From NCBI GenBank assembly GCA_024137785.1, contig JAHRHZ010000263.1:43732721-43796720 (forward strand): DNA of 64,000 nucleotides, in the 5' to 3' direction. Positions 7,268 to 53,992 of the stretch are shown in pieces (within the stretch, counting starts at the first letter, position 1; each line of letters begins with the position of its first letter). Position numbers and translations under genes: made by a program. The notes beneath the pieces were generated by a model that was not told the DNA's origin, searched no databases, and saw only the letters and a program-made list of their open reading frames with translations. This DNA comes from Ginglymostoma cirratum. Its lineage: Eukaryota.

Positions 7268-7868
7268 CGAGATAACAAGGTGTGGGGCTGGATGAACACA
7301 GCAGGCCAAGCAGCATCGTAGGAGCAGGAAAACTTGACGTTTCGGGCCTAGACCCTTCATCAGAAAATTTTCTGAGNNNNNNNNNNNNNNNNNNNNNNNN
7401 NNNNNNNNNNNNNNNNNNNNNNNNNNNNNNNNNNNNNNNNNNNNNNNNNNNNNNNNNNNNNNNNNNNNNNNNNNNNNNNNNNNNNNNNNNNNNNNNNNNN
7501 NNNNNNNNNNNNNNNNNNNNNNNNNNNNNNNNNNNNNNNNNNNNNNNNNNNNNNNNNNNNNNNNNNNNNNNNNNNNNNNNNNNNNNNNNNNNNNNNNNNN
7601 NNNNNNNNNNNNNNNNNNNNNNNNNNNNNNNNNNNNNNNNNNNNNNNNNNNNNNNNNNNNNNNNNNNNNNNNNNNNNNNNNNNNNNNNNNNNNNNNNNNN
7701 NNNNNNNNNNNNNNNNNNNNNNNNNNNNNNNNNNNNNNNNNNNNNNNNNNNNNNNNNNNNNNNNNNNNNNNNNNNNCTGCTCCTATGATGCTGCTTGACC
7801 TGCTGTGTTCATCCAGCCCCGTGCTTGTTATCTCGGATTCTCCAGCATCTGCAGTACCTTTTATCCCC
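7268..7868. mobile_element. Penelope-like pLTR fragments in inverted orientation flanking a 400-N gap
   Basis: Left GAGATAACAAGG...GACGTTTCGGGCCTAGACCCTTCATCAGAAA; right CTGCTCCTATGATGCTGC...TTGTTATCTCGGATTCTCCAGCATCTGCAG. Gap 7377-7776. Confidence 0.8.
7334..7366 (-). ncRNA. Minimal hammerhead ribozyme motif (PLE type)
   Basis: Minus strand reads CUGAUGA-AGGGUCUAGGCCC-GAAAC-GUC: both conserved core boxes, stem II hairpin and GUC triplet. Confidence 0.65.
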
Positions 7869-9454
7869 AACAGGGATACTGCTGCTCACATTCAAATAGT
7901 TGTGAATACTTCGCATCCATCTGGTGCGGGTTGCAAACTGGTTTAAAATGCCTTCTCCAGACAATGTCAGCTTGGTATTATTGTCCTCAAGTTTCAAATG
8001 AGATTTTACGCTCAAGGTTGGAACGCAAAAGTTTTGCAAGAACTCCAGTTGGCTGAAGCTTTGTTCTATTCTTCACCTGTATGATTTATTACAGCCTATC
8101 TCATTAAAAAGAGATAAACAGCAACTGTGGGTGGAAATAATGATGTTTTAGATCCTTAGGCACTTCTTCAGTCTTTGTTGGGTGTCAATATCCACAGTTA
8201 TGAGATTAGACTGATATTTCAAAGGGACTACCTTTTGGATGAAATTGTTGCCATTCCATTTCTCAGTGGAATAAACTCAAATGTATCTTGAGACATACAG
8301 AAACATTAAAGTTTTTGGAATTCCCTGGGTCTCCTTCTGCTCTCCCCACTATGGAGTCATCTTGTACTGAAGACCGCGTCCACCTGTGGTGTATGCCATA
8401 ATTTATGTGACAGTGACCAGCCGGTCATAAACTGGACTCGCTCAGTTCTTCACACAGATGCACAACCAGCTTTCTAGACAACATTCAGGAAAACCAGGCT
8501 CATGGCTCATCTGAATTGGCAGTGTCACACCACTTGATGTAATGCAGATATCATGTGCAATGCCTCCATTTTTTCTGGAGGTGAAGCTGTAGCAAATCCA
8601 CACTTGCAGTCATAGAGTCATGCAGTATAGAAACATACCCTTTGGTCCAACTAGTCCACACTGACCATGTTCCCAAACTGAACTAGTCCCTGTTGCCTGC
8701 ATTTGGCCCACATCACAAGTTGAGCAGAGAACACTACTGAATTATAGGCTTTCAGATGAACCATCAAGCCAAAGCCAAACGTTTTAATGCTATGCAGGTG
8801 AAAGAGTTCAAAAATCACTCTGCATTAAAACTAACCATTTCTAACACGGATTGCTGTTACAGATTGCCAGCTAATGCAGAATTTTGCTGATGTTGCTGAC
8901 CCAACTATGGGGCAGAATTGAAATATTAGAGGTTTTTGAGTGCCTTAAGTGGTGTACTGGAGACTAAGTTGAAGATCAACGGAGCAATAGTGGCATCAAA
9001 TCTCGGAAAGTCATACAATGCAGATATGTTCAAGGTGCTACAGGGTTGGTGTGATTGGGGCATATCTAGAAAATTCCATGTGTTAACCAGAGAATGTGGA
9101 CTCATTTTCACCTGAGCAAGAAGTCACAACTTGAGTAGCTTCCCAGTATTTGGGCCACATTAAAAATTGCCAATGATGGAAAATGGGGATGGGTAAACCG
9201 TGGCTGGGATCTGCCTGCCATACTCAAGCCCAATTGCATTCATTTAACATAGATGCAAACTGTGAAATCATGTCTCATGCCAAAATCTTGTCAAGGGTTG
9301 GTACAATTCGCATCAACAAACAAATTAGAACTGGGGTAGACCACTCTGTCTCTCTAGCCAGCACCACTCAGGATGTTCAACAAAGAGTCACATCAACAGA
9401 GCTGAAAATAGGCAAGTGTCCCTGGATCGAGCACATTAAAGAAAAGGAGGCAAA

Positions 9455-9670
9455 GACTCAAAGTCTGGAATGCACTGCCATGGGTGGTGGTAGAGGCAGA
9501 TACAATAAAGACACTTAAAGGAACTAATGGATAAACATGAATATGCAAGGAACGGAGGGATATGGACCAAGGGCAGGCAAAAGGGATCAGTTTCATTTGG
9601 CATCATGTTCAGCACAATATCATGGGCCAAAGGGCCTGTCCTTGTGCTGTACAGTTCTATGTTCCATGTC
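9455..9670 (+). mobile_element. CR1 3' end
   Basis: TGGAATGCACTGCC..GGTGGTAGAGGCAGATACAATA...GGGCCAAAGGGCCTGT...GTTCTATGTTC. Confidence 0.75.
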
Positions 9671-9769
9671 AATGAAAAACAACCTCGTGACAGTTAACGT
9701 GCCTGCTAACAAATGGGTGAGAAGGATGTTTAAATTGCCATCTCTCTCACTTTGACAACACACACCAGA

Positions 9770-9880
9770 ACAGCCTTTATTGTCATGTGCACTCGAATAA
9801 GTGCAGTGAAAAGTTTATAATTGCACCACTTTGGTGCCATCTTAAGGACTGGGTACCTAGGTACAGACACTAAGGGTTTG
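9770..9880 (-). mobile_element. Rex1/Babar-like 3' tail (related copy at about 36350-36465, plus strand)
   Basis: Reverse complement of CTTTTCACTG.AC...GTGCACATGACAATAAA; the same motif with GGTACC is at 36360-36460. Confidence 0.45.
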
Positions 9881-12229
9881 CCACAGGATTGAAAGAGTAG
9901 ACAAAAAAATAGTTTAGCATAGGATCAAGGTTTTATAAAGTACTCGACTTACTCAAAGCCCAGAAGAAGAATAAAAGTATCTTTAATAAGTACTCAAATT
10001 ATAGTCTCTTTCACTAAGTCTGTGCCCACCAGGCTTCAGAATGAGGCCTCACTGTCTCCATCTGCTGGCCTCTGGTCCATTGTCCTCCAGGACTCACTTC
10101 CCAGGCTGGTCAGGGCTCCGGCCTGCAACTCAACCCCGAGGACTCGTCTCCCAGGCTGGCCCAGGCTCAGACTGCCTCCCACTCCGGACTGCAGGAATTT
10201 ATATTTGGAAAAAAAAACTCAAAAAGCCACATGATGACTTCAATGAATAACTGACTGTTCAAGCAGACCAGCCAGTGATATGTGAGAAGAACTGTGATCT
10301 GCACATTGGACTCAGTCAGTTGTAAACACCCAGCAGCAACAAAGATTATTTCTGATGATTCAATCATACTTGAAACAAGGGACAACCACACAGTGTGAAC
10401 AGCATAATCCATTTAGCCTCCAAGTCATCCAGAGATTGAAAATAATTCAACTGTCCTCACCACAAAACTCTTGCACCAGCTGACTCTGGGCAGCGTAGCA
10501 GAGGAAGACGGAAAATAGAAAATAGAACAGAAAGGCTTATAGCCATTGATCCCTTTGCTAGTGGGTTTTTTTTTAAAAAAATAATTTGGTTGCATTTTTG
10601 TTCGGTTTTTGATAATGTAATGGCTCAAGTAGCCTTAAAGCACAATCTGCATGTTCTGTTTGCATCTCTGCCCAACTCAGGGTTGAGATGAACAAGTAAT
10701 TGAAATCTGTAAGCTACACTGATGTTAACCATTGAATGTAAAAGATCAATAATGAATATAATGGCAAGTGAATACTATATTGACTGAAGCCGCTGACAAG
10801 AATGTCATCTACTGGATGTGGACAAAGATAACCGGGCCAATAAAAATCAGCTAACTTTAAACAATGCATGATGGCTGGATGTCTGGAGTCAGATGGTCAG
10901 GGATGACCTGTAATTTGAGGCGCAAGAGAAAGATGGTGTTTGGTCTGTTGCTGATGTTGAGAGGACGAGGTTGTCTGCCTAGAGTATATTTACCTAAATG
11001 GTGACTAGAAGAGACTTGACAGTCGCTTGGTCAAGGAGACTTGCGGTCTAAGCACCTGACATCATATGGGCACTGAAATTCAAAAACGAATCTGTTCATG
11101 TTTTTATGAACTACCCTCGAGCTTGGGAGACTATGGTTGCCTGTTGCTTTCTCCCTGATGATAACCCCACCAATGAGAGTCAACTGGCCAACAAAGTATC
11201 CATTTATTCTGTAGTCTATTTTGCTGCACATTTGAAAATTGATTTTCTTGCAATTTGTCCTGAGAAGGGCAAGATGAAAGAAACTTCAAACTATCTCCTT
11301 TCAACAATGTTCAAGTGCTGTGCTAAGTGATTGTAACGATCATTGCTTCTTCACTATCAATGGATCAAAATTCTAAATTCCGATATTCCTCCACAACATG
11401 GACTGCAGCACTTCAAGGCGGCAGTTCACCACTACCTTGGAGAATAATAGATGCTGGTCTTGCCAATTGTACTCCCACCCCTTTAACAAATAAAAATAGT
11501 CATAATTCATTCGTTTGTACTTTATCATTGAGACACTGTATACAGTGAGAGTATGGATTAGTGGTTTCCATGACTCAAACATGGAAGGGCTTCAATAACA
11601 GGTCTGTCAGGCATTCAGTCCATTGAGTCTGCTCCATAATTCAATGGAATCACGGCTGATCTAATAACCCTTAACTTCACTTTCCTGTTTTTGTTTTTAT
11701 AATCACAACCCTTGATTCCCCGTCAGATTGAACATTCGTCTATCTCAGCCTTAAATATATGAGACCATAAACTGCAAGAACAGAAGTAGGCCTTTCAAAA
11801 AGTCCCCTCCCCTGGTATTTCTTTCTTATACATACATAGACACCTTGTTGTCCCAGCTTACATTAGCCTTCCCTGCTACCAATGTCAGAGATTGTATTTG
11901 CACTATTGCGCTGAATGCACCATTATCTTCTTGAGGGCAATTAGCGATGGCAATAAAAGCTGGTCCAACTAGCAAATCCTAAATCTTAAAAGAAAAATTA
12001 AAAAAGACAAATTCAGCTAAGTTATCCAGCTCACTACAAGGCCTCTTCCATTCTTCGTTGCGTTTCGCTGGCAAGTCCAACGGATGTTGTCCCGCCTTAA
12101 TTGCCCCTGAACTAAGTGGCTTGCTAGGCCTTTTCAGAGGACAGTTAAGAGACAGCCATATTGCTGTGGGTCTAGACTCTCACGATGAGACAGCAAGAAC
12201 CCTTTCCCTAAAGAGGGCATTTACTGAAC

Positions 12230-12645
12230 CTTCACAAGCTTCAAAATCTCCCCTCCCCCACCACATCCCAAAACTCGCCCAGCTCGTCCCTGCCTCCCTC
12301 ACCTGTCCTTCCTCCCACCTATCCACTCCTCCCACCTCAAGCTCCACCCCCATCTCCTACCTACTAACCTCATCCCGCCCCCTTGACCAGTCCGTCCTCC
12401 CTACCTCCCCACCTACACTCACCTTTACTGGCTCCATCCCCGCCTCTTGGACCGGTGTCTCCTCTCCACCTATCTTCTCCTCTATCCATCTTCTATCCAC
12501 CTCCCCCTCTCTCCCTATTTATTTCAGAACACCCTTCCCCTCCCCCATTTCTGAAGAAGGGTCTAGGCCCAAAACGCCAGCCTTCCTGCTCCTCTGATGC
12601 TGCTTGGCCTGCTGCGTTCATCCAGCTCTACACCTTGTTATCTCA
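12230..12645 (+). mobile_element. Penelope-like element 3' end with degenerate hammerhead, nested in a SINE
   Basis: TTCACAAGCTTCAAAATCTCCC (end of GIY-YIG ORF), C-rich UTR, CTGAAGAAGGGTCTAGGCCCAAAACG. Flanks CATTTACTGAACC / CATTTAGTGAACC act as TSD. Confidence 0.85.
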
Positions 12646-13499
12646 TTTAGTGAACCAGATGGGTTTCTATGACGATCAATGATAGATTCATTTTATAAAA
12701 TCTGAAATTGGTGGCAAGAAAACTATATTTCCACCAGCTGCCTTGGCTATTGATGTTTTAGTTCAGCTCACTGTTTGTATTTCACTCATTTCCTTTTACA
12801 AAACTGCGTGCAAGGCCGGAAATCTGTATTGTTGGGACTAGCTGATCCTTTAAACAGCAGCATCTTAAACTCAAGGTGGTTCATAAAGAGATTTGCACTT
12901 GCTATTGTTTCTCTCTGGGCCTTCACAATGACTTGTCGCAGTGAGTTCAAGCATTCCCTCCTCACTCAACAGTATCAATACACTTTGGTCCCATGTGGCT
13001 AATTTCAACCAATTTGAAGTGATATCCAATGCAATATTTTAGAGCTTCTTCATGAACACAAGCCTTTTTTCAAGTATACCAAGGCAGTGTTTGATTGCTT
13101 TGTGGAGGAAAGCCAATTTCCTGCCACATTCCACCTTTTTTGATAGAGGAGATAAACTGACATATTAGGAAAGCAACTATAGCAACCAAGCTCAATTGAA
13201 GTAATCCCAAGACAGCTTTAGTAGTCAAACAATAGCTTGACCAGCAAGATAGAGACTCAGTCATGCCTTGTGAGTACTTATGTGCTACCTGCATCTACAT
13301 TCAGACCCTATTATTTCTGAATGCCAAAAGAATAGGAACTGTTCAGTCCAAAGGGAAGTAGGTGGCCATGCTCACAAATCATGAAAAGTTAGCCTGTAAA
13401 CAATCCAGAAGATTAGCGGAACAATGTTCTGTTAACTCAAGGGCATTGAAGTAGGAATAGGTGATGTTTCCATTGTGTGACCATGTTATAGTAGGTGTA

Positions 13500-13925
13500 A
13501 AAAAAACAAGAAATCGCAGGCAAGCTGAGCAGGTCTGGCAGCATCTGTGGACAGAAATCACAGTTAACATTTTGGATTGAGTAACCCTTCCTCAGAATTC
13601 ATGGCAGCTAGGAAAATGTCAGTTTATATGCAGAGGATAGTGTGGGGGCTGGGGTTAATGAGTAAATGATAGGTAAAGATAGAGAGCCCAAAAGAGAGAG
13701 AAGAACTGTTGGACAAACAAAAGGAGTGGATAACGATCCGGCTGGGAGGGCTAATAGCTATTAATGGGGATTGTTAGTGATTAACAGCAGGTTGTATGTA
13801 ATAGCAGTGTATCTGATAACAAGGCCTGGAGCGTGGGTGTTGGAGTAAGGACACAGCCCTAAAGTTGAACTCTCAATATTGGCTCTAGAAGGCTGCAGGA
13901 CCTCCAAGCAGAAAATGAGGTTACA
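13500..13925 (-). mobile_element. Older Penelope-like family 3' end
   Basis: AGCAGGTCTGGCAGCATCTGTGGA...CAGTTAACATTT...ACCCTTCCTCAGAA pLTR and GAAGGCTGCAGG...AAGCAGAAAATGAGG GIY-YIG tail. Confidence 0.7.
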
Positions 13926-13930
13926 TCAGG

Positions 13931-14030
13931 ATTTTTTTCTGAAGAAGGGTCGAGGCCCGAAACGTCAGCTTTCCTGCTCCTCTGGTGCTGCTTGGCCTGC
14001 TGTGTTCATCCAGCTCTACTCCTTGTTATC
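13931..14030 (+). mobile_element. About 100 bp solo PLE pLTR with intact hammerhead core
   Basis: CTGAAGA-AGGGTCGAGGCCC-GAAAC-GTC at 13939-13966; flanked by TTACATCA direct repeats (13921 and 14031). Confidence 0.8.
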
Positions 14031-14329
14031 TTACATCAAGTGTTTGTGTTCACTTTAGGAGGTTGCACCTGAGGAAACAGAGGCTGCCCTGGAGGGCACA
14101 CAGAGCAAAGTCACAAGAACAGCTGGCACAAAGCAGGTTTCAATGCCCTCAAGTTTATAAGGCTCAGGGGTACGCTGATCAAGGTCTCTAAAACGACAAA
14201 TAAATTCTCTAGGAACAGAAACTATTCCCTTTGACAAGGGCATTCAGGTCATGGAGGCTTTATTATTAAATTATGGCCATGCCAGTTAGAGGTTATATTA
14301 GAAAACTGAAATATTTCTTTAATCATTCA

Positions 14330-14570
14330 GGGGTTGTGCACTTCGTGGCTGGGCCAGCATTTATTGCCCATAGCTAATTGCTCTGGAGAAGTCTGTACTG
14401 AGCTGCCTTCTTGAATGGCAGCAGTCCATTTAGTGCAGGTACAGCAACAAATGCTGTTGAAGGGGGAGTTCCCGGATTGTGATCCAGCAACAGGGAAAGA
14501 ATGGCAATATATTTCCAAGTCAGGATGGTGAGTGGCTTGGAATTTGCAGGGGTGGTGTCTCAATGTATTT
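14330..14570 (-). mobile_element. CR1-like LINE 3' tail
   Basis: GGCCAGCATTTATTGCCCAT..CTAATTGC...GGGAGTTCC.GGATT.TGA.CCAGC; reverse of the 31250-31520 tail. Confidence 0.75.
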
Positions 14571-15168: not shown

Positions 15169-15179
15169 TGACCAAAACA

Positions 15180-25824: not shown

Positions 25825-26030
25825 GAAAAAACGGAAATTTCTGGAAAAGCTCAGCAAGTCTGGCAGCATCTGTAAAGGAAAGAACAGTTACCGTTTCGGG
25901 TCCGGTGAGTTCTTAGGAAGGGTCACTGGACCTGAAACGTTAACTGTTTTTTCCTTCACAGATGTTGCCAGACTTGCTGAGCTTTTCCAGCAATTTGTTT
26001 TGTTTCCTGATCTACAGCATCCGCAGTTCT
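25825..26030. mobile_element. Palindromic older-family PLE pLTR element
   Basis: CTGGAAAAGCTCAGCAAGTCTGGCAGCATCTGT...GTTTC followed by its reverse complement GAAACGTTAACTG...ACAGATGTTGCCAGACTTGCTGAGCTTTTCCAG. Confidence 0.8.
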
Positions 26031-26799
26031 TTTTTTTTTTAATTGTACGAATCATGCTGTTTGCAGAATTAATTCAGTTTTATTGAATGATGCCCACTCC
26101 TTGCTGTTTAAAAGGCATGTTTCTCAGCTTTATCACAGCTTTTATGAAAGATCATCAACATTTTCCACAGCACAGATAGTCTGCTAAATTTACAGTCAAT
26201 GTTAGAACAGATCTGCTTAGTCTTTTAATCTGCTGAATGTTATCACTAATTGCTGGCTACATAATGTTGCTGGGGGCACATCCTCAGGTTAATATTTCTT
26301 TCATGCCTTTTACTTCAATCTCTGTGCCCTGTGGTGTCCGCTCACTCTGCCAGTTCAGATCGAGCATCATTGGAAGCAATTATTTTAAACTTCCTCCCTT
26401 ACAGCCTGGATTAATGTGTGGTTTTAAAGTTTCCCCAGCACACCCGGGATTTTAAAGCTACACTTGTGGAGTTTCTGATATCTGCTCACTGAACTTCAAT
26501 TTGGGGCCACTCCCACAGATTGCCGCCTCAAGACAGAGCCAGAGTCTGCTTTGGAATCACTGATTCACTGTCTCCAGAGAGCTGCTAACTCTGCTGTTGC
26601 AGCACATCTCTTTCAAGCTCTGAAGTCATAGAATCAGAAGTGTAGAAGGCGGCTATGGAGCTTATAATGCCTGTACCAGCTCATTATCTCGTGCTAGACA
26701 AATACTTTCACTTCCTCGCTAAGGATTGCCACAAAAAGGTTCTTCCGTCAGGCTCTTAGATCTTCAGCTCCTCCCTCACGTTGACTATACTGTATGAAT

Positions 26800-27888
26800 A
26801 GGGCAGGGGATTTCAATAATAGGGAGCACATTTTTGCAGTGAGAGGATAAAGTTTTAAAAAAGACATGAGGGGCAATTTTTGGGTGGCTCGCATGTGGAA
26901 TGAACTTCCTGATGAAGTGGTGGATGTGCGTACAATGACAACATTTAAAAGACATTTGGATAAGTACATGAGCTAACAAGGTGCAGAGCTGGATGAACAC
27001 AGCAGGCAAAGCAGCAAAGCTGACATTTCGGGCCTAGACCCTTCTTCAGAAAGGGTCTACGCCCAAAACGTCAGCTTTCCTGCTTCGCTGATGCTGCTTG
27101 GCCTGCTGTATTCATCCAGCTCTGCACCTTGTTAGCTCAGATTCTCCAGCATCTGCAGTTCCTGCTATCTCTGGATAAGTAGCTGAGTAGTCAAGGAATA
27201 TAAAACCCTTGTTAAGCCACATTTGGAGGAACTGTATGCGGTTTTGGCCACCACACTACCAGAAGGATGTGGAAGCTGCGGAGAAAATACAAGAGAAGGT
27301 TTACCAGGATGTTGCCTGGCCTCGAGGGCATTCGCTATGAGGAAAAGTTAAAAAGACTAGGATTGCTTGCACTGGAAAGACGGCGGCTCAGAGGAGACCT
27401 GATAGAGGTCTACAAAATTATGAGAGGCATACATAGGGTAGGTAGTCAGAGGCTTTTTCCCTAGTGTAGAATTTCAGTTATGAGGGGACACAGGTTCAAA
27501 GCGAGAGAGGAAAAGTTTAAGGGAGATGTGCAAGGGAAGTTTTTCACACAGAAGTGGTAGGAGCCTGAAACGCAGTGCCAGAGAGCTGGTGAAAGCCGGC
27601 ACGTTGGCAACATTTAAGAGGCATCTGATGGATACATGAATACGGGCTGAATAAGGGCAGGAGGTTCTTTATTTAAGATTAGTTAGGGCATGATGATCAG
27701 CACAGGCTTGGAGAGCCAAAGCCTCTGTTCTTGTGCTGTACTTCTCTTTTGTTCTTGTTCTCTATGGTTCTTATTGTTCTTTTGTTTGGAGGGATACGGA
27801 CCAGGAGCAGCCAGGTGGGACTAGTTTAGTTTGTGATTATGTTCAGCATGGACGTGTTAGTCTGAAGGGTCTGTCTGTGCTGCATGAC
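26800..27888 (+). mobile_element. CR1 3' end hosting a PLE palindrome (26972-27172) and a second CR1 (about 27190-27785)
   Basis: Host CR1 UTR is split and resumes at 27785 (TTTGGAGGGATACGGACCA). Inner CR1 encodes RRFTRMLPGLEG..YEEKL.RLGL..LERRRLRGDLIEVYKIMRG. Confidence 0.85.
26972..27172. mobile_element. Palindromic PLE pLTR element with hammerhead-like cores
   Basis: Inverted arms centred near 27045; flanks TGGATAAGTACATGAG / TGGATAAGTAGCTGAG act as TSD. Confidence 0.85.
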
Positions 27889-28900: not shown

Positions 28901-30111
28901 ATTTTCGTAGCCTCCATTAATGAAAGGTGACAGAATGGTGATAATCATGAGATTTGAAAATGCCTCTCATGACTCACACAAAACTAAACAGAAAATGAGA
29001 AATTAAGAATAGTAACCACATCCCCTCCCCCGCTCCCACAAAACCAGTTTTGTAGCATATTTAGTGACAGGCAGAGAAAGGTTTTAGAGGGGACGTGCCC
29101 ATCGTTACCTGGGAGAGCAACAGAAGAATAAAAGGATTATGTAAGTCACATGATCTGTGAGCCAAATGATGCAAACTCTGTTGTATTAATTGGTAAGGTC
29201 ATTCAATTTACACAGAACGGCTGATGCAGGTAATGCAATCTGGAATATTGGAAACATTCCAGATTCCAGAATCTGGAAAACAAAGGATATACCAGCATGG
29301 TGCTTACATTATTGTATGCTACTGAAAGTACACGCTTTGAAAGATACTGTAGTCAATGTGAGTATGAAATGCTCCAAGAGTTCAAGAACGTGAACTCGCT
29401 ACTAAAGAAGTCAAAGAAGATTTAAAAAAGTGATTACGATAAGACATTTCAATTGGTACAAAACAGGAAAAGGTTCAGAGGGTTATGGGCCAAAACGCAG
29501 ACAAGTGAGACTAGTTTGTATTGAGAAACTTGGTCAGCATAGGCTAATTGGACCGAAGGTCTGTTTCTGATCTGTATGACTCTAGCCTGTATGTGACTCC
29601 AGTCCCACCTTGCCCTCTGATGTGGTTGAACAAGCCAGTGAGTTGCATTACCAGCTTCTCAGGGGAGATGTTGTTTCTCAGGGGAAAACAAACTGTAAAC
29701 AAAAATGCAGTCCAGCCACATTGGGTCATCTAGCTTGGAAGCATCCTTTTCTTGATAAAGTCAGATTTCAAGGCCCGCATTTTTTCTCTATCCTCAATGT
29801 GTTATTAGTGGGTGGGAAAAGAAAAAGCCCGAAAAATTTCCTGAAAGCCTACTCATCTCAAAACATGAACCCTATCACTCGACACAGAAGCTGCCAGACC
29901 TGCTGAGCATTTCCAGTATTTTGTCCAGTATTTCTATCCCCCACAACGCCAACGGACTATGGTTCAGTGAGTGAAGGCAACCCTCTAATATTTTACCTTG
30001 AAGCCACTGGTCACGCACAATGTTGCCAGGATAGTCAACCAAGGCCTGACTTCATTCAATATCCACGCATCAAGCTCGCTTTCACTTGCTGAAAGGTATG
30101 CGCATTGTGGA

Positions 30112-38813: not shown

Positions 38814-38859
38814 AAAAATTATTCACTTTTTTGTCTCAAAGCATCTAGAGAGATATAGA

Positions 38860-39423
38860 GATAGCAGGAACTGCCGATGCTGGAGTCTGAGCTGTAGAGC
38901 TGGATGAACACAGCAGGCTAGACAGCATCAGAGGAGCAGGAAAGCTGACATTTTGGGTCTGGGCCCTTTTTCAGAAATGGGGGAGGGGATGGGGACTCTG
39001 GAATAAATAGGTGGAGACGATGATGGAAGCTGGACAAAGGAGCAGATAGGTAGGAGAGAAGATGGACAAGTCAAGGAGGCAGGGATGGAGCCAGTAAAGG
39101 TGAGTGTAGGTAGGGAGTTGGATGGGGGTTGGTCAGTTGGGAAGACGGACAGGTCAAGGAGGCAGGGACGAGCTGGGCTGGTCTTGGGAGGTCGTCAGGG
39201 TGGGGAGATTTTGAAGCTTGTGAAGTCCATATTGAGACCATTGGGCTGCAGGGTTCCCAAGCGAAATATGGAGGTGCTGTTCCTGCAACCTTCGGGTGGC
39301 ATCATCGTGGCTCTGGAGGAGGCCTAGGATGGACACATTGTCCAAGGAGTGGGAGGGGGAGTTGAAGTGGTTCGTGACTGGGAGGTGCGGTCGTTTGTCA
39401 TGAATCAAGCGTAAGTGTTCCAC
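38860..39423 (-). mobile_element. Penelope-like element 3' fragment (GIY-YIG tail plus pLTR)
   Basis: EHLRLIHDKRPHLPVTNHFNSPSHS...RRLQEQHL; flanks AGATATAGAG act as TSD. Confidence 0.9.
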
Positions 39424-39589
39424 AGATATAGAGAGGCCACCTGATTAGATGACGACTTAAAAACTGTATTTTCATATCATTTTGATTATATAGTCACTAT
39501 GGATGAGTGAAATTCCAATTATTTGTTGTTGACTAGAAAATATCAGAGGTTGGGTACAATTGCTTGTAGACATTAAAAATATTTAAATT

Positions 39590-39930: not shown

Positions 39931-40759
39931 TGTTACTAATCCAATGCTGTTCAACTAACACAGACTGCACTAAATATCTTGGAGAAGTTTTTCCCCTCCT
40001 CCTTCTCGACAACACCACCCCACCCCACCTGAAATAATTCTGGAACTGATTTTAGTTGAGAAAAACTAGCCATTTCCAGAGATCTAAAAAAAAAAAGTTT
40101 ACCAGGACCATGGCTGGCTTGTGTAATGCAGTCAGATAAACGACCCCTTTTTCATTGCTTGCAGAATTCAGAAATTCACAAGTAAAAAGGAAACCCAAGT
40201 ATTTCTCCCACCGCCACACTCAGATTCTCTAAATGTTAGTGTTAGTAAAACACAAGAACATCTGCTGGCATACCCCTCAGCTCCAAGAATCCACACCCTG
40301 ACCTGACCGAATGACAGTGCTCCTGAAGTCCAGTACCAGAACCCCTCACCAGTTCTAATAAAACCTTACGAAAGCCACTCCTCCTTACTACTGTTAAGCA
40401 TCACTTTTTCTGTATGTCCTCAGGTTTTCATAAGTATTAAGAAAAAGGATAAAAACATTAATACTCCAGAAGGGAGGTACATATAATGCAATGGCTATTA
40501 ATTTATGAATAAGCCACCCATTGGTTTTTATGAAAGAAAGAAGCATTATCGTTTCCATGTAACCCACTGCCCCCAAAAGAAAGAAATCCAGAGAAAATCC
40601 CTCAATATGATTTGGTTTACTATGACCCAGATCAGGACATTATGTTGTTTACTACCAATTTCAACTTGTATTTAAATAGCACCTTTCATATCCCAAATTA
40701 CTTCACAGAAGTACAATCAGACTAAAACAGACACAAACCACGTCATACTTTGGACAAAG

Positions 40760-42850
40760 TTAACAAGGTGTGGACCTGGATGAATACAGCAGGCCAGGCA
40801 GCATCAGACGTTTCGGGTCTAGACCCTTCTTCAGAAATGGGGGAGGGGAAGGGGGCTCTGAAATAAATAGCCGGGGGTGAGGCAGTGATAGAAGGTGGAT
40901 AGTGGAGCAGATAGGTGGTGGAGAGAAGACGGACAGGTCAAGGAGGCAGGGATGAGGTGGGGGTGCTGGTCTTGGGATGAGGTCGGGGGTGGGGAGATTT
41001 TGAAGCTTGTAAAGTCCACATTGAGACCACTGGGTTGCAGGGTTCCCAGGCGGAAAAGGTGCTGTTCTTCCAGTTTTCAGGTGGCATCGTTGTGACACTG
41101 GAGGAGGCCCAGGGTGGACATGTCGTCCAGGGAGTGGGAGGGGGATTTGAAGTGGTTCGCGACTGGAAGGTGTAGTCGTTTGTCGCGAACCGAGCGTAAG
41201 TTCTCCGAGCGGTCCATGAGCTTCTGCTTGGTCTCCCGAAGTAGAAGAAGCCACACTGAGAACAGCGGACACAATAGACCACATTAGCGGATGTGCAGGT
41301 GAACATCTGTTTAATGTGGAAGGTTTTCTTGGGGTCTGGGATGGAGGTGAGGGGGTAGTTGTAGGGGCAGGTGTAGCACCTCCTGTGTTTGCAGGGAATA
41401 GTGCCAGGGGTGGTGGGGCTAGTGAGGAGTGTGGAGCGGACGAGGGCGTCGTGAAGAGAGCGATCCCTACTGGAAGGCAGTTATGGGTGGGGAGGGAAAT
41501 ATATCCTTGGTAGTGGGGTCAGATTGCAGGTGGCGGAAGTGGCAGAGAATGATGCATTGAATCTGGAGGTTAATGGGGTGATATGTGAGGACAAGGGAAT
41601 TCTGTCTTTGTTTTTAATTGCGGGGAGGGCTGAGGTGCGGGAAACGCAAGAGATGCGATTGAGGACATTTTCGACCAATGTTAAGGGGGGGAAATTGTGG
41701 CCCTTGAAAAGTGAAGACATCTGGGATGTCCGGGAGGGGAACGCCTCATCTTGGGAGCAGATGCAGCAGAGGCAAAGGAATTGGGAATAGGGGATCGCAT
41801 CCTTGCGGGAAGGTGGGTGAAAGGAGGTGTATTCTTGGTAACTGTGGGAGTTGGTGGGCTTGAAATAGATATCAGTTTCTAGATGGTTACCACAGATGGA
41901 GACAGAGGGGTCCAGGAAGAAGAGAGAGGTATCAGAGATGGTCCAGGTGAATTTGAGGTTGCAGTGGAAGGTGTTAGTAAAATGGATGAACTGTTCGAGC
42001 TCCTCATGGGAGCACGAGGCAGCGCCAATACAGTCATTGTTATAATGGAGGAAGAGCTGGGGGATAGTGCCAGTGTAGCCACGGAACAGGGACTGTTCCA
42101 CATATCCTACAAAGAGGCAACATGCGGGTGCCCATGGCCACCCCCTTCGTCTGTAGGAAGTGGGAGGAGTTGAAGGAGAAGGTGGTGTTAAGGGTAAGGA
42201 CGAGCTCGGTTAGGTGGATAAGGATGTTGGTGGAGGGGGACTGGTCGGACCTGCGGGTGAGGAAGCAGCAGGGGGCTTTTAGGCCATCTGCATGGGAAAT
42301 GCAAGTATATGGGGAATTGGACGTCCATGGTGAAGATGGGGTGTTGAGGGCCAGGGAATCGGAAGTTTTGGAGGTGGTGGAGAGAGTGGGTGGTGTCCCG
42401 GATGTAGGTGGGGAGTTCCTGGACCGGGAGGAGAAAGTGGAGTCGAGATAAGTTCGGTGGGGCAGGGGCAGGAACAGGAACAGGCAGAGACAATGGGTCG
42501 ACCAGAGCAGTGGGGTTTAATGGATTTTGGGAAGGAGATAGAAACAGGCGGTGCAGGGTTGGGGAACGATGAGGTTGGACACAGTGGGTGGGAGGTGTCT
42601 TTCAAGGGGGCGGTAGGAGGAGGCGTCAGAGAGTTGGCGCCTGGCCTCGGCGATGTAAAAGGTCAGTGTGCCATACCAGAGCTGTGCCTCCCTCGTCCAC
42701 GGGTTCTATAGTGAGGTTAGGGTTGGAGTGGAGGGAACAGAAGGCTGCACGTTCTGTGGGGGAAGAGGTTGGAGTGAGAGAGACGGGTGGAGAGGTTGAG
42801 GCAATTGATGTTGCTACAGCAGTTAGAGATGAAGAGGTCCAGGGAGATCT
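40760..42850 (-). mobile_element. Penelope-like retroelement (Neptune-type): RT, Cys linker and GIY-YIG, 5'-truncated and disrupted
   Basis: GRPIVSACSC, FTMDVQ, GVAMGTRM, degenerate catalytic motif (HYNND for RYIDD), TDIYFKPT.SH.Y..Y.S.HP, IPYSQFL; linker PC..RRCYTCP; FTCTSANVVYCVRCSQCG..Y.G. pLTR with hammerhead at 40807-40834. Confidence 0.93.
40807..40837 (-). ncRNA. Minimal hammerhead ribozyme motif (PLE type)
   Basis: CUGAAGA-AGGGUCUAGACCC-GAAAC-GUC on the minus strand, with a perfect stem II. Confidence 0.6.
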
Positions 42851-44504: not shown

Positions 44505-45190
44505 ATCAGAGATAAAAGGTACTGCAGATGCTGGAGAATCCGAGATAACAAGCATGGGGCTGGATGAATACAGCAGGTCAAGCAGCATCATAGGAGCAGG
44601 AAAACTTGACATTTCGGGCCTAAACCCTTCATCAGAAATGGGGGAGGGGAAGAGGGTTCTGAAATAAATAGGGAGAGAGGGGGAGGCGGATAGAGGATGG
44701 ATAGAGGAGAGGATAGGTGGAGAGGAGGCAGACAAGTCGAAGAGGCGGGGATGGAGCCAGTAAAGGTGAGTGTAGGTAGGGGGGTAGGGAGGAGATAGGT
44801 CAGTCCAGGGAGGATGGACAGGTCAAGGGGGTGGGATGAGGTTAGTAGATAGGAGATGGGGGTGAGGCTTGAGGTGGGAGGAGGGGATAGGTGAGAGGAA
44901 GGACAGGTTAGGGAGGTGGGGACGAGCTGGGCTGGTTTTGGGATGCGGTTGGGGGAGGGGAGATTTTGAAGCTTGTGACATCCACATTGATGCCATTGGG
45001 CTGCAGGGTTCCCAGGCTGAATATGATTTGCTGTTCCTGCAGCCTTTGGGTGGCATCACTGTGGCATTGCAGGAGGCCCAGGATGGATATGTCATCTGAG
45101 GAATGGGAGGGGGAGTTGAAATGGTTCGCGACTGGAAGGTGCAGTTGTTTGTTGCGAACTGAGCGCAGGTGTTCTGCAAAGCGGTCACCA
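44505..45190 (-). mobile_element. Penelope-like element 3' fragment
   Basis: LGDRFAEHLRSVRNKQLHLPVANHFNSPSHS...LGTLQPNGINVD; pLTR with CUGAUGA...GAAAUGUC near 44607-44636. Confidence 0.92.
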
Positions 45191-46449: not shown

Positions 46450-47300
<851 letters not shown>

Positions 47301-47399
47301 TTGTACATTTTAATTAAAGCTCTTCGGGTTTATTTTTGCCGCACGAATACCATCACCCTGTCCATAACGCTATTTCAAAGTAGTGGAGGGTGTTTTGGC

Positions 47400-47660
47400 T
47401 AATACTTTTCGCTGAATCGACATTGCAAAAAAAATTGCTCATTATCACATGATTGCGTGCGGGAGCTTGCAGTCCACATACTGGCTGACGCGTTTCCTAT
47501 ATAACTACAACAGTGAGCAACGTTAATGAAGCGTTCAGAGATAGCTGACCCGAAACGTCAACTTTCATGCTTCTCTGATGCTGCCTGGCCTGCTGTGTTC
47601 CTCGAGCTCCACACCTTGTTATCTCAGACTCCAGTATCGGCAGTTCCTACTATCTCCAAT
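47400..47660 (+). mobile_element. DeuSINE fragment followed by PLE pLTR, immediately upstream of SLC9A7
   Basis: TCATTATCACAT..TTGCGTGCGGGAGCTTGCAGT...CTGGCTGACGCGTTTCCTA; then CCCGAAACGTCAACTTTC...CACCTTGTTATCTC. Confidence 0.7.
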
Positions 47661-48479
47661 TTTTTTAAGTTGCGTTAGACTTAATGATTCCAAATTACAA
47701 TTCCTTGTGTCACTGTTTTTTTTGAAAAAATCTTCATCTAAGGGAACATTTGCTTTGTGTCTGACAGGGCCAGTGATCCTCATGAACAATTGTCATCAAT
47801 CCAGATTTGGATCCTACAGTTTTGTTTTTGCAAAGCAAAAGCAAAATATTGCAGAACCTTAAAATCTGAAATAAAAGCTCATCATACCCAGCAGGTCGAG
47901 CAGTGTGAGGGGAGAGAGAGATCAGTGAAAGTTTCCATTTGACAGCTGTTCATCACAACTTGTTTGTAAACAAGTTGGTAATTCTAGGATGTAAATTAAA
48001 TGCCAAACAATCCAGCATCCCCAATTTTCACTTAGATAGTTCCTGCATCATTGATATAGTTTCTGATTCAAGAAAATGCATCTTTTGGATTAGTCACAGG
48101 CAGGAACAGGTGAAAAGGTGACGAAGACAAAGGAAAATAAGGAAGGTGACAAAACTACTCAAAATGATCGATGTTAAGGAGAGTGTTAAAGGTGAAGATG
48201 CAAAAAGGCTTCTGTAGGGGGACCTGCTCTTGTACTGAGGGAGGAGATGATAACAACACAGGTGCCAATCTGGTCGACATAAGTGGATAATGTTTAAAAG
48301 GCAGGAATAGGCGATTTCACAGGGTTGGAAATTGGTGTGGTGGATTACAGGTTAAAGGACAGGACAGGTCTTTCAGGCATTCAAACAAGAAATTGAACTG
48401 TAGCTGCTGCTATTGTTACTTGCCAGAGCCTCTTAATGTTCAATAGTGTCATTGTTTCTGAATCCATCACTAGCAGGAT

Positions 48480-48950
48480 TATCAGAAAATGCAGGAAAGT
48501 GGACTTGAAGATTATTAGATTAGCTACTATCTCACTAAAAATTGGATCAGACTTGATGATCTGAATGGCCCATTTCTGCTCCTATGTCTTATGGTCTAAT
48601 TAATATTAGAAATGAAATAAGTCAATATCTGGATGAAGAGAAAATAGATGGAAGACGCCAAAATGGATTTCAGGAAGGAAGGTCATGCTGGACTAACCTG
48701 AGAAAAATTCTATGAGAAGTGACAGATATGGTAAGTGAGAGAAATCCAGTGGCTATAGTTTATTGAAACTTTCAGAAAACCTTTGAAAAGGTGCCATACA
48801 GGAAACTATTGCAAAAGGTTAACAGATATGAGTAGCAAGCATTGGAACAGAGAGGGCAACAAATTACCTTGATAGCAAATAATGAGTAGGAATTGAAGGG
48901 TATATCTTAGACTGGTTATAAATGTGTCTCCAACTAAAGATTCTTGTTCT
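48480..48950 (+). mobile_element. Old CR1 fragments
   Basis: CR1 tail, then ATGGATTTCAGGAAGGAAGGTCATGCTGGACTAACCTG (HGF..GRSCLTNL) and TTTCAGAAAACCTTTGAAAAGGTGCCA (FQKAFDKVP). Confidence 0.65.
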
Positions 48951-48959
48951 GGGACCACT

Positions 48960-51900
48960 TCTATTCGCTGCAGTGACCCACAACAACTACTTACATTAGG
49001 ACAGCACCTCTTTAATGTAAGAAGGCATCCCAATACCACATATGACTGAGCCACACAAGAAATGTTGGGCGGATGGCCAAAAAATTTCTCAAAAACTTAA
49101 GTCTAAAGAAATATTTTAAGACAATAAAAAGGTGTTGGGTGTGAATTCCAGAGCACAGGGGCTAGACCACTTCAAGTACGGCCACCAAGTCTGAAGCAAT
49201 TAAAATCAGGGTGCTCGAGAGATCAAAATTAAATGAATGCAATTACCTCAGAGGGTTATGGCATGGAGGAGATTACAGAGGTAGAGTGGGATGAGACCAT
49301 AGAGGAAACAGAAAACATGATGAAAATTTTAATATAAGATAACAAGGTGTAGAGCTGGATCAACACAGCAGGCCAAGCAGCATCAGAGGAGCAGGAAAGC
49401 TGACGTTTCGTATCTGGACCATTTTTCAGATTTCTGAAGAAGGGTCCAGACCTGAAACATCAGCTTTCCTGCTCNNNNNNNNNNNNNNNNNNNNNNNNNN
49501 NNNNNNNNNNNNNNNNNNNNNNNNNNNNNNNNNNNNNNNNNNNNNNNNNNNNNNNNNNNNNNNNNNNNNNNNNNNNNNNNNNNNNNNNNNNNNNNNNNNN
49601 NNNNNNNNNNNNNNNNNNNNNNNNNNNNNNNNNNNNNNNNNNNNNNNNNNNNNNNNNNNNNNNNNNNNNNNNNNNNNNNNNNNNNNNNNNNNNNNNNNNN
49701 NNNNNNNNNNNNNNNNNNNNNNNNNNNNNNNNNNNNNNNNNNNNNNNNNNNNNNNNNNNNNNNNNNNNNNNNNNNNNNNNNNNNNNNNNNNNNNNNNNNN
49801 NNNNNNNNNNNNNNNNNNNNNNNNNNNNNNNNNNNNNNNNNNNNNNNNNNNNNNNNNNNNNNNNNNNNNNNNNNAGCATCAGAGGAGCAGGAAAGCTGAC
49901 GTTTCGGGCCTAGACCTTCAGGTCAGCTTTCCTGCTCCTCTGATGCTGCTTGGCCTGCTGTGTTGATCCAGCTCTACACCTTGTTATCTCAGATTCTCCA
50001 GCATTGGCAGTTCCTACTATCTATGAAAATTTTAATGTCAAGATTGAGCTTGACTGGGAACCAACTTAATTCTGAACACATTTAGATGATAGGTAAATGG
50101 AATTCTGTGAAGGTTAAGTCTTGTTGTGAGGAGCTGATTTTTAAATGACCTCAAATTTGCAGAGGATAGAATGTGGGAGACCTATTAGAAGTATTTAAGA
50201 TAGTCAAGTCTAGAGATAACAAAGGCAAGAATGGATGTTTCAGTAGGAGATGAGCTTAGACAAGGGCAAAGTTGAGGATGTTAGACAGCGAGGAAATGTG
50301 CAATAGTAGAGCTGCCATGGATATACGAATGGAAGGTCACCTTGGGGTCAAATATTACAAGCAGACAGGTTTAGTCTCAGACTGTTGTCAGACAGAAGGA
50401 TTGAGTCGATTGCCTTCAATCTTCATAAGAATGGATGAGAATATGCATTTGTGATGGGACTCACTGACTGTCTATGTTAATGCATTGGAATAGTTTTTAA
50501 AACATTTTAATCAAAGTTAGACCTCTGTGATATGGTCATTTTCTTTTTTTTATTTTATTATTCATTTACATGCAATTCTTGGATAAACAATCAATGTAAA
50601 TAATTTCTGTTTGGATAATAAAGTGGAATTTTAAAAATTCCTAGTATTTAATGGGAGGAAATCTCACATCCAATACAGGATGTCAGATAAGCAGTCTGAT
50701 AATTTAGCAATAATGAAGGAAGTAAGAGAGATGGCAGTGAACTACATTTAGAACTAATATTGTGCCTTTGGATACTGTCATGGAGGGTAATCTAGAAGAG
50801 ATGATTTAGATGAGAAATAACAGAGATCCATGATTGAATCTTGAGGGCTACCAAAATAACTGTGTGGAAGTGGGAGAGGAGGAACTGCAAGTAATAGGCT
50901 ACAATTAGATTAATAAGAATGAAAATTAGATGAGAGTAGTCCCATCCAGCTGGATGACAGGGGAGAAGAGTTGGTAAAGGATGGTATGGTCACGTGTGTC
51001 AAACATTGCAGGTAGGTTGAGAAGGATGAAAAGGGATAGTTTACCCTTGTCACAATCTCACAGGATATCATTTGTGACTTTGATTCAACTTTGACTCAAT
51101 CCCTCTCTCTGGAAACAGTCTGAGACCAAATCTGTCTGCTTGTAACCATTTCAGTTCTGTGACAAAGCGATAATCTGACTGCAGGGATTCAAGCATGGAA
51201 TGCTGAGAAAATTGGGAACAGGTTTGAGAGGTGACAGCACATTCAAGGACTTTAGACAGGGAAGGGAGATTGGAGATGGGATGGCAGTTTGTAAATTCAG
51301 CGGGGTTAAAGGTTTTTTTATGAGGAGAAAGCTGGTGGTGGCAGATTTCAAGGAAGGGCAATAGCTGAAAGAAGAGAACTGTTCACCTTATTGGCCACCA
51401 TGATAAAGGGATACAGAGTGGGAGAGTGTAACGGAGCAGCTGCAGTAATGTTCTGTTGAACAGACAGCAGAAGATTCAACAGCTAAAATTGTAGATGCAA
51501 CTGAAATGAATTGGGGGATAGTCTTTTCCATTGGTGGATACGAATGGAAGTAGGATTGGGACATGGAAGGGTTGTCAGTAGTGGGTGTTACAGGAAGTGA
51601 TTGGAACTGCCCTTATATTTGATTGATATAATAAAACAAAGAAGACCATATGAGATAGCAGTGTCAAGGGAGTTGATTGTGAATATGGACTGGAAAGTTT
51701 ACATGGGGGAGAGATTTAGGAAGGATAGAAGGTAGTGAAAGCCGTGGAAAAAGAGCTTGATTCATAAGCTGGAGCTTGAAATTATCAAAAATGAGAAGTT
51801 GTTCCATACAGAGACTGAAGGAGGAAGAAAATGAAGATCTTTCAGTAATAACATTTTTTGTATACTTGAGAAGGGAGTACAAAAGTATGATTTTAAAAGA

Positions 51901-52370
51901 GAGATGAGGGGTTGGACCAAGATGAGATGCTCAAAGGAAAAATTCCCAGAGGAGTAGCGGGTTAGATCAAGGTCTGACCTGTTGATAAGTGCCCCACTGC
52001 CACCCCAAAGTGTTCACTGGGCAAATGGTGGAAGATAAAGCCAGGTATGTAGACATCATTAAGGGGAATGGTATCTTCACTCTCAACCAGGTTTTCATGA
52101 AGGCAATGATGATATTGATGCAATAATCTTGAGTACATGCATGGATAACAAAGACCTTATTTAAATGTGAATGGATATCCTGTAGGGAGGTACATTGCGG
52201 GCTGGTGAGAGCAGAGTCAGTAGGGCCAGTGGTGGGAGCTGTGTGTTGGACAGGAAAAAGATTGGCAAAATTGACCCTCAGTGCTTACATCACACAGGAA
52301 GGTAGATGATCAAGGGTTGCTGCCACCACTTGCCTTAATGAATACTTTGGAGGATGCACAGAGGGAACCT
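48960..52370 (-). mobile_element. Long decayed L2 LINE interrupted by a PLE palindrome
   Basis: Minus-strand KKTFNPAEFTNCHPISNLPSLSKVLECAV...LESLQS (L2 RT N-part); L2 3' tail near 48990-49300. Confidence 0.75.
49334..50022. mobile_element. Palindromic PLE pLTR element spanning a 400-N gap
   Basis: Inverted outer arms; 14-bp TSD ATGAAAATTTTAAT at 49320-49333 and 50023-50036; gap 49475-49874. Confidence 0.85.
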
Positions 52371-52607
52371 GTAGCCACAGAGTCATACAGCATAGAAACA
52401 AGTCCTTCGGCCCACCATGTATGTGCCAACCTACGAACACCAAACTGCATTCAACCCATTTACCTGCACTTGGTCCATAGCCTTACCTAGGAAGGAAATG
52501 AGCCTGGAACAAAAACAACAGAGAAGGTAACATGAGGAATATTGAAGAACTGTGAAGGGAATTGTAAAGGCAGGGTACCGAGTGTGGGGAAGAGAAAGAG
52601 ACAGGCC

Positions 52608-52835
52608 TTAGAACAAAGGAAATAGGAGCAGGAGTAGGCTGTTTGCCCCTTCAAGCTTGCTCTTCCATTCAAATGATAGTGGCTGATTATCCAATTCAGT
52701 ACCCTTTCCCCTTTCTCCTTCTATCCTTAATTCCTTTAGTTCTGAGAATGATGTCTAATTACTTCTTGAAAACATTCAATGTTTTAATCTCAATTGCTTT
52801 CTGTGACAGAGAATTGTACAGGCTCACCACCCAAC
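52608..52835 (-). mobile_element. CR1 3' end
   Basis: AGGAAATAGGAGCAGGAGTAGGC...CCTTTAG...TTCTTGAAAACATTCAATGTTT. Confidence 0.7.
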
Positions 52836-53339
52836 ATTTATCTGTCTTGGAGGGGTAAAGGGAAAAGAAGTAATGCAAAATAAAAACAAAAGTATAACTC
52901 AAGAGAAGGGGGTTTCCAAATTTTCAGACAAATCCTGGACTTAAAAATAAAATGATTCTTAGCATCAAGGATGGGATGTTGTGGAGAAGAAAGAATGCCC
53001 CATCATTGACCGCAAGATGGACATTCTGTTAAAAGTTATGAAACTCTGCCATAAATGGAGGTAAGTTCAGTGATGTGAAACAGCAAGCAAAATTTTAGGA
53101 TTCACCTTCACAATGTGTGAACAGTGCACTTCTATTAGATGAAGCTATGAGTAAGTTATTTCGATTTGTAAGAAGAGATACTGAAGTTAAAAGTCAAGAT
53201 GTAATCTTAGTAAGGGAACAGTTGGAGTAGTGTGTGCAGCTTTGAGTCCACAATAGAAAGGATATTGAAACATTAGAGTGGGTTGACAGTGCAACTTCAT
53301 AGTGGTACAATTGCACAGAAAGACTACAAAAATTGTGGG

Positions 53340-53503
53340 ATAACAAGGTGTGGAGCTGACCCTTCATTGACCCTTCATCAGGGTCGAGGCCTGAAACGTC
53401 AAGCTTTCCTGCTCCTATGATGCTGCTTGGCCTGCTGTGTTCATCCAGCTCCACACCTTGTTATCTCGGATTCTCTAGCATCTGCAGTACCTATTATCTC
53501 TGA
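53340..53503 (+). mobile_element. Short PLE pLTR insertion with rudimentary inverted 5' arm
   Basis: 15-bp TSD TACAAAAATTGTGGG at 53325-53339 and 53504-53518; sits within an old CR1. Confidence 0.85.
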
Positions 53504-53891
53504 TACAAAAATTGTGGGTTTTTTTTTGTTCAAGCATCACATAAAGGTGTCTAATAGGATAGGGTACCTGGTAAATGAGGGGCTTCAATGAGGAAGTTAA
53601 AGTTTAATGTAAGAGATTTAGGCAGAGGGCAGGAGACATTTTAAGTACACCAGTGTTAGAAACTACACTTCCCAGAAGGTAGGGGCTAACTCTTAAGTTC
53701 CAGTGGGTGTCAGCCGACCACCTATCAGGAGCTGTCCAAAATATAACAGAGGGATGGTAGAAGTGAAGGATACTTCACCTGTCCTTGGGCCTACTGAGTT
53801 CCTCGAATGGTGAATTAATGGTCAGTTAAGGGTCTCATTCCATGTCTACCACTATTTTACCCTCTCACCCAAGCAGGTATCCCCTTAGATT

Positions 53892-53992
53892 TAGAGGTAA
53901 CAAGGCGTGGGGCTGGATGAACACAGCAGGCCAAGCAGCATCATAGGAGCAGGAAAACTTGACGTTTCGGGCCTAGACCTTTCATCAGAAAT
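53892..53992 (-). mobile_element. Solo PLE pLTR with hammerhead core
   Basis: Minus CUGAUGA-AAGGUCUAGGCCC-GAAAC-GUC at 53961-53988. Confidence 0.8.

Follow-up and report, generated by a model that had tools for sequence, protein, structure and literature searches.

Short hammerhead-bearing repeats of Ginglymostoma cirratum as pLTR pieces of a Neptune-like Penelope element with a fixed 5' end

Introduction

Penelope-like elements (PLEs) that encode an endonuclease (EN+) are known with a pseudo-long terminal repeat (pLTR), an adjacent inverted copy and a 'tail' of 30-40 bp that is often present at one end only, the one-sided tail having been described qualitatively (PMC8557442, PMC3846280). Short repeats with a hammerhead ribozyme motif were analysed in a stretch of 64,000 nucleotides from Ginglymostoma cirratum (GenBank assembly GCA_024137785.1, contig JAHRHZ010000263.1, positions 43,732,721 to 43,796,720, forward strand), referred to below as the window, and in further parts of the same genome. 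They were found to be pLTR pieces of an abundant Neptune-like Penelope element with a mostly decayed minimal hammerhead. A sequence-only reading of the window had proposed that they spread as a tiny retrozyme-like element, or as extreme 5' truncations, through a Neptune-type reverse transcriptase (RT).

A CX2-5CxxC linker is a feature of the Neptune clade that is shared with Nematis (PMC8557442), and a preprint lists only Neptune and Poseidon for vertebrates (bioRxiv 10.64898/2026.07.22.740005). For rotifers, recombination or deletion was invoked to explain solo pLTRs, and self-priming on an antisense template to explain head-to-head forms (PMC3846280). The Poseidon element of Anolis carolinensis (PAc) nicks and extends both target strands with unprocessed RNA as template, its tail is bounded by two internal RT starts, and its insertion has no need of the hammerhead, with reads never ending at the cleavage site (PMC11167929). 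The origin of the pLTRs, inverted arms and tail of PLEs, along with the role of the hammerhead, is described as still open (PMC11167929, PMC8557442). The defining features of non-LTR retrozymes are tandem units together with cleaved, circular RNAs (PMC7229834, bioRxiv 10.64898/2026.07.22.740005).

Sample and coordinates

Within the repeat, positions are counted from the C of CTGA, the hammerhead word (position 0), the predicted cut leaving a 5' end at +28. The genome comprises 4.36 Gb in 289 contigs, from which a population sample of 17 blocks on 14 contigs was taken, amounting to 1,074,399 non-N bases (~1.07 Mb), with three all-N blocks dropped. The sample blocks held 177 pLTR arms (165 per Mb), extrapolating to ~7e5 genome-wide, with the blocks being non-random and lying beside the window, beside earlier matches or at arbitrary places. 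Forty-eight arms that touched N or showed <80% identity were excluded from the 5' count, leaving 129 clean 5' ends. In addition, 29 loci were selected for carrying the start of the open reading frame (ORF), 25 of which had a clean pLTR end, and 49 short copies were compared with 42 long copies.

The parent element

The full-length element has the organization pLTR-ORF-pLTR and a length of ~3.8 kb. A full-length copy obtained from genome searches (L207:5086-8883) consists of a pLTR, an ORF that now lies in three frames, a 3' untranslated region (UTR) and a second pLTR, with its first ATG situated ~35 nt past the pLTR tail. Its frames gave an RT match (PF00078, E=1.3e-5, below the curated cut-off), and VVY-CxxC-x-YIG and H motifs of the GIY-YIG type were read by eye in the endonuclease (EN) piece, which was without a Pfam match. 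Between RT and EN a CX4CxxC linker was identified, both in L207 and in the window (40938-41480). Judged by its motifs, this domain order corresponds to the Neptune/Nematis arrangement of PMC8557442, and the element is termed Neptune-like, the linker being shared by both. The N-terminal part of the ORF contains a repetitive Ala/Pro/Thr-rich stretch with PTADAAP-like units (L207:6080-6240).

The element resembles EN+ Neptune/Nematis PLEs in its single ORF with RT and C-terminal GIY-YIG, partial tandems, inverted (head-to-head) pLTRs, a tail of 35 nt on one arm (30-40 bp in the described elements), target site duplications (TSDs) and solo pLTRs (PMC8557442, PMC3846280). Unlike in these elements, solo and paired pLTRs make up the most frequent class of product here (~165 arms per Mb), and they display a sharp 5' end and an excess of G before it.

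The RT at 40758-42846 of the window, to which the spread of the short units had been ascribed, is indeed Neptune-like, but this copy lacks the first 1.2 kb, is split over several frames and shares 77% identity with L207; it represents the family rather than being its present driver. A Pfam search of six decayed window frames and a PDB sequence search with the RT piece returned no match.

A fixed 5' end away from the cleavage site

Among the 129 clean 5' ends, 51 were located at -8..+1 (43 of them at -5..-2), 35 inside the pLTR and 43 further upstream, extending to -2322. Arms stopped at -8..+1 in 51 of the 94 cases that reached it, compared to 15 stops in 422 arm-bins upstream (Fisher p=7e-31). 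The 25 clean ORF-start copies had eight ends at -5..-3, five upstream and twelve inside the pLTR. Short and ORF-linked copies start at one common point, 4-5 nt upstream of the CUGA core. As this end lies ~32 nt upstream of the cleavage site, where only two of the 129 ends were found (+26..+31, cut at +28), cleavage does not set it, and a discrete 5'-end class exists on top of a truncation continuum. A discrete length class was thereby recovered, rather than the smooth truncation curve that the sequence-only reading had named as contrary evidence. The description of the repeats as extreme 5' truncations, also offered in that reading, was not upheld, as copies of the short class most likely extend all the way to the RNA 5' end.

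The fixed end is likely to be the start of a capped RNA. This is supported by TATA-like spacing, by an excess of G at the junction and by precedents from other elements. In 102 of 118 extended copies, the word TATTTAT precedes A(-4) by exactly 31 nt; these copies are related and thus amount to one spacing observation. The fixed start itself lies within CCATTTC, which we take to be initiator-like. A G directly preceded the start in 14 of 19 ATTT junctions (p=1.5e-5) and, in a wider set, in 29 of 55 junctions; at other points of truncation, G made up 42 of 134 non-C bases (Fisher p=0.008). Four of seven among the RNA-read joints listed at the start point began with a base that is G on the element strand. 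An extra G at a fixed 5' end is also seen in full-length L1 and SVA, where the untemplated G has been interpreted as a copied cap (PMC4859970), and transcription of the Penelope element of D. virilis was reported to start within the upstream pLTR (PMC2377424).

Tailed and untailed arms

The 3' ends were bimodal (n=175), with 65 at +90..99 and 72 at +125..134. The stretch between these two ends, which are 35 nt apart, is the PLE 'tail', and in having two apparent internal RT starts that bound it, as well as both strands presumably nicked and extended, the element resembles PAc, in which, as proposed here, insertion can do without the hammerhead (PMC11167929). Head-to-head pairs accounted for 46 of 131 events in the sample. 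In 34 of the 38 pairs that could be classified one arm was tailed and the other untailed, with three having both arms tailed and one both untailed (p=3e-7); among the selected loci, 28 of 36 pairs were of the one-tail form. The arms of pairs ranged from ~20 nt to 1.7 kb, and the asymmetry also applied to ORF-bearing arms. TSDs, mostly of 13-15 bp, flanked 25 of the 34 one-tail pairs compared to 1 of 289 random controls; for single copies they were present in 8 of 19 with the fixed start, 6 of 21 extended copies and 1 of 13 that start inside the pLTR.

We infer that inverted pairs result from two primings, one per nicked strand, each from a different start site, and the TSDs and the one-tail rule fit two primings on sense RNA better than the self-priming model of the rotifer paper (PMC3846280). 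PAc differs in belonging to another clade, in having an ORF that starts inside the hammerhead, whereas the ORF here starts ~35 nt after the tail, and in showing no difference in start site between the strands in vitro, compared to one site per arm in the pairs described here (PMC11167929). Inversion through priming on both strands is also a likeness to L1 twin priming, except that the latter inverts the 5' part of one RNA (PMC4859970), while both arms here start at the 3'-end signals of the element.

Neighbouring antisense arms fold as one long hairpin (-113.9 kcal/mol). Isolated gaps of 400 N were central in inverted PLE pairs in 11 of 15 cases, those of the window being at 7377-7776 and 49475-49874. 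The assembly thus breaks at these hairpins and hides some junctions, and the gap size of 400 N is probably nominal.

Some fixed-start arms were directly preceded by ORF sequence. Composites consisting of a pLTR, the first 420-1230 nt of the ORF and a second pLTR beginning at the fixed point were identified at eleven loci (L227, L231, L233, L236-L239, L246, L248, L250, L252), four of which (L236, L238, L248, L252) carry ORF-start sequence directly before the pLTR inside one TSD. These ORF fragments within a single TSD indicate that ORF-bearing RNA was present at the reaction, and the composites are likely to be template jumps after run-off. An apparent peak of composite junctions at ORF position ~420 was set aside, the query having ended there.

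Short copies and ORF-bearing copies

Placement of all short copies in one clade was rejected (approximately unbiased test, p=0.0003). Short and long copies share all variable alleles, both kinds occur in all four rough subfamilies, and no fixed allele was restricted to the short copies among the 49 short and 42 long copies compared. None of the five same-strand neighbour pairs among 194 arms was a head-to-tail unit repeat, and three of the five had ORF-start sequence between the arms. No head-to-tail array was present in the window, arrays elsewhere in the genome not being excluded by this. The short copies are likely to be dead-end by-products.

Hammerhead motif and RNA reads

A minimal type I hammerhead had been attributed to the pLTR, and its core (CUGANGA/GAAA/UH), stem II and palindromic stem III were all found. 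A relaxed hammerhead-core pattern gave eight matches in the window, where 50 base-shuffled versions averaged 0.06, but an Rfam scan of the window detected no hammerhead family at E<=1, only weak miRNA matches on inverted pairs. Across the sample and window, 96 relaxed matches were obtained, 53 with intact GAAACGTC, with stem II pairs, an extra A before stem II and the palindromic ACGU stem III kept. Subfamilies vary at N7, in loop II and at the base that pairs with U in stem II (55 U-G and 27 U-A of 84), a pattern that suggests selection on the source elements.

Metazoan PLE hammerheads likewise possess CUGANGA, an extra base before stem II, G10.1-C11.1 and a loopless palindromic stem III, and occur mostly as single motifs with some opposite-strand pairs 100-700 bp apart; cartilaginous fish are not named among their hosts in the available text of PMC4209133. 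Unlike in these, where helix I has 4-5 bp, stem II here has 4 bp and stem I comprises only weak A-U/G-U pairs, four in the youngest subfamily and 2-3 in others. In an RNA starting at -4, stem I cannot exceed these 2-4 weak pairs. The hammerhead fold was 6-9 kcal/mol above the minimum in four copies, being the minimum neither as a single RNA nor as a cofolded pair, and no unit folded better than shuffles (z -0.9 to +0.85). By analogy with the anole element, self-cleavage would likely need the help of protein.

The one RNA run with depth, a poly(A) set, contributed 49,230 reads that match the element, equally in both directions, with 86% continuing into unlike sequence and pLTR reads ~40-fold more numerous than ORF reads. 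A search for unit-length or circular RNAs in this run, a weak test, showed no pile-up of reads at the cleavage site and a single back-joint (1474 to 1362), the origin of which is uncertain. The reads fit copies embedded in host transcripts, neither showing nor excluding cleavage. Loose read ends at 1384, considered as a sign of cleavage, proved to be a one-base difference between subfamilies. A second read set was dominated by one locus, and two further sets consist of contigs, which cannot show ends.

Proposed mechanism and alternatives

The reading that best accounts for these data, and which we hold to be probable, takes a capped and uncleaved RNA of the element as the template. RT would initiate internally, inside the first (5') pLTR, and the cDNA would end by run-off at the RNA 5' end after ~100 or 135 bases, such that the shared 5' end would correspond to the RNA polymerase II start and the extra G to a copied cap. 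Each nicked target strand would prime one cDNA, one per start site, and the two cDNA ends would join head to head to give an inverted pair. Following run-off, RT could jump to another element RNA, which would produce the pLTR-ORF fragment-pLTR composites, and the hammerhead would not define template ends. A broader claim, on which we are evenly divided, is that several hundred thousand fossil reactions record the PLE cycle as one with a capped uncleaved template, with every pLTR a valid internal start and with nicked strands using different start sites (tailed versus untailed).

Several observations weigh against internal starts on a capped RNA. Short copies had each other as nearest neighbours slightly more often than expected (0.62 vs 0.50 by chance, p=0.008), and they outnumbered long copies in the two older rough subfamilies (38 short vs 23 long), so that some short copies may stem from non-coding source RNAs. 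The one-tail rule was broken in 4 of 38 sample pairs and in 8 of 36 selected-locus pairs. A deliberately harsh filter, which drops junctions where the opposite arm, the ORF or the TSD could have supplied the G, left G at 10 of 19 (p=0.011 when compared with base composition, p=0.075 when compared with the truncation control) and, in unselected sample blocks, at 2 of 6. In the single poly(A) run, which was apparently unstranded, no pile-up of read starts or ends was observed in the pLTR. Lastly, the template of any single solo copy could be either the 5' pLTR or a 3' pLTR in a read-out RNA, which the data cannot separate.

An unlikely alternative is a route resembling that of short interspersed nuclear elements (SINEs). 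Capped RNAs would begin at the same point either in solos with an internal promoter or in any copy, such as a 3' pLTR or a truncated one, that keeps the TATA-like word upstream; they would read into the flank and be copied in trans, making the short unit partly non-autonomous with no ribozyme step. The same 5' end and G are predicted by this route, the mild clustering of short copies and their surplus in older subfamilies agree with it, as does the surplus of pLTR reads, and precedents exist in the internal promoter of the D. virilis Penelope pLTR (PMC2377424) and in a rotifer host gene mobilised in trans by pLTRs alone (PMC3846280). It is opposed by the lack of a short-only clade or fixed allele, by junction fillers and composites that draw from ORF-start sequence, and by the requirement of the anole enzyme for RNA 3' of its start sites (PMC11167929), while reads that enter unlike sequence with equal directions are as expected for copies in host RNAs.

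A mechanical stop is unlikely. RT would pause just before a C-rich tract, or the AT-rich ATTT would be the first place able to anneal to the target or the other cDNA. The fixed end does lie directly before a C-rich run, several pairs are joined via A/T palindromes, and the strict G test is only borderline against its control. However, the more AT-rich TATTTATTT ~30 nt upstream showed no peak (1/39 and 0/38 stops in its bins), and such a stop would not add G and makes the 31-nt TATA-like spacing a coincidence.

Finally, a true non-LTR retrozyme, in which hammerhead cleavage would yield unit-length or circular RNAs for reverse transcription by the PLE enzyme, has the hammerhead-shaped conservation and the relatedness of retrozymes to pLTRs (bioRxiv 10.64898/2026.07.22.740005) in its favour, but is very improbable given the near absence of ends and the absence of read pile-ups at the cleavage site, the lack of head-to-tail neighbours, the antisense arms folding as one hairpin and the weak stem I with its unfavourable fold. 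The repeats share with non-LTR retrozymes a short, non-coding form, a type I hammerhead, kinship to PLE pLTRs and dispersed monomers (PMC7229834, bioRxiv 10.64898/2026.07.22.740005). They are not retrozymes, as the features that define these are lacking or not seen: the ends are not set by cleavage, head-to-tail arrays were not found among the 194 arms or in the window, nor was a clade of their own, the 5' end is shared with ORF copies, and no circles were evident in the poly(A) run. The retrozyme-like element proposed earlier is accordingly set aside.

Significance

The pLTR structure and the hammerhead are already known, and neither the element nor its ribozyme motif is new in kind. No report of a cap-derived G or of start-anchored solo pLTRs in PLEs was found in the literature searched, with subscription papers, Repbase/Dfam entries and supplements lying outside the search. 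If the fixed end is a cap, the abundant stubs map the start site of the element and show that in vivo the template is uncleaved RNA, and the existing in vitro system should then, as a sharp prediction, use a single start site on each strand. Should the broader claim also be true, solo pLTRs, inverted pLTRs and the one-sided tail become outcomes of a single two-priming mechanism, with the hammerhead outside template processing. Caution is also advised for dispersed 'retrozyme monomers' in vertebrate genomes, which may be plain by-products of autonomous PLEs.

Copies and neighbouring features in the window

The repeat was present at all eleven sites listed in the sequence-only reading, and one additional site was found (Table 1). 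Units of 100-200 bp had been described; this size did not apply at 12540, 38860, 44505 and 40760, where 5'-truncated copies (~414, 570, 690 and 2090 bp) extend into the 3' UTR or ORF. Head-to-head inverted insertions occupy 7268, 26972, 49334 and 53340, two with a central 400-N gap, and true solos from the fixed start were seen at two sites (13929-14031 and 53894-53993). Of the reported CTGA(T/A)GA cores, intact or decayed, a full core (CTGA-N-GA...GAAACGTC) was confirmed in 4 of 11 (7268, 13931, 40760, 53892), with the 3' strand of stem I lost at 40760 and a stem II mismatch at 53892; the CTGA half was absent at 47540 and 53340. TSDs of 8-16 bp, reported for several sites, were verified at six of eleven (12540, 13931, 26972, 38860, 49334, 53340), with none found at 7268, 40760, 44505 and 53892, and an off-register 7-mer only at 47540.

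Table 1. Copies of the repeat identified in the window
Feature	Position	Strand	Description
Head-to-head insertion	7267..7870	.	untailed arm 7267-7366 (-) from -3 of core, 400-N gap, tailed arm 7777-7865 (+); left-arm core intact; no TSD found
5'-truncated copy	12232..12644	+	~340 nt 3' UTR and untailed pLTR; decayed core; 13-bp TSD, 1 mismatch
Solo untailed pLTR	13929..14031	+	fixed-point start; two non-target G before A-T(7); intact core; 8-bp TSD
Head-to-head pair	26970..27172	.	untailed arm (-) and tailed arm (+), joint at hammerhead 5' edge; 10-bp TSD; single long hairpin fold
5'-truncated tailed copy	38857..39424	-	extends to ORF end; 11-bp TSD
Decayed 5'-truncated Neptune-like PLE	40758..42846	-	RT, CX4CxxC linker, GIY-YIG region, untailed pLTR with 16-nt deletion after GTC; 77% identity to full-length L207
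Young-subfamily 5'-truncated tailed copy	44506..45190	-	~690 bp; pLTR has 98-100% genomic matches elsewhere
Tailed pLTR	47547..47656	+	start inside stem II, no CTGA
Compound inverted insertion	49336..50022	.	left untailed arm (-), 400-N gap, right tailed arm (+); 16-bp TSD, 1 mismatch
Inverted stub and arm	53339..53503	.	~20-nt inverted untailed stub, short scrambled filler, tailed arm (+) from +7; 15-bp TSD
Solo untailed pLTR	53894..53993	-	start A(-4); core intact, stem II mismatch; no TSD found
Tailed pLTR fragment	58735..58829	-	start +36; absent from the sequence-only reading

A related, older family, whose stem II is longer, was identified at 25825-26040 of the window, and also at 13502-13591, 29883-29924 and 54855-54927. 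This family also forms a head-to-head pair (11-bp TSD with 1 mismatch), and its relatives in the sample also start just before CTGA.

First exons that, judged by their translations, presumably belong to an SLC9A7/SLC9A6-like sodium-proton exchanger gene (46840-47200, minus strand) and an RP2-like gene (57550-57670, plus strand) are arranged head to head. Most of the listed copies would then sit in introns of the SLC9A7/SLC9A6-like gene or between it and the RP2-like gene. Upstream of the RP2-like exon, loose repeats of 51-100 bp and 31 bp with GATTGG words (reverse CCAAT-box) were observed at 56370-56821 and 57299-57407.

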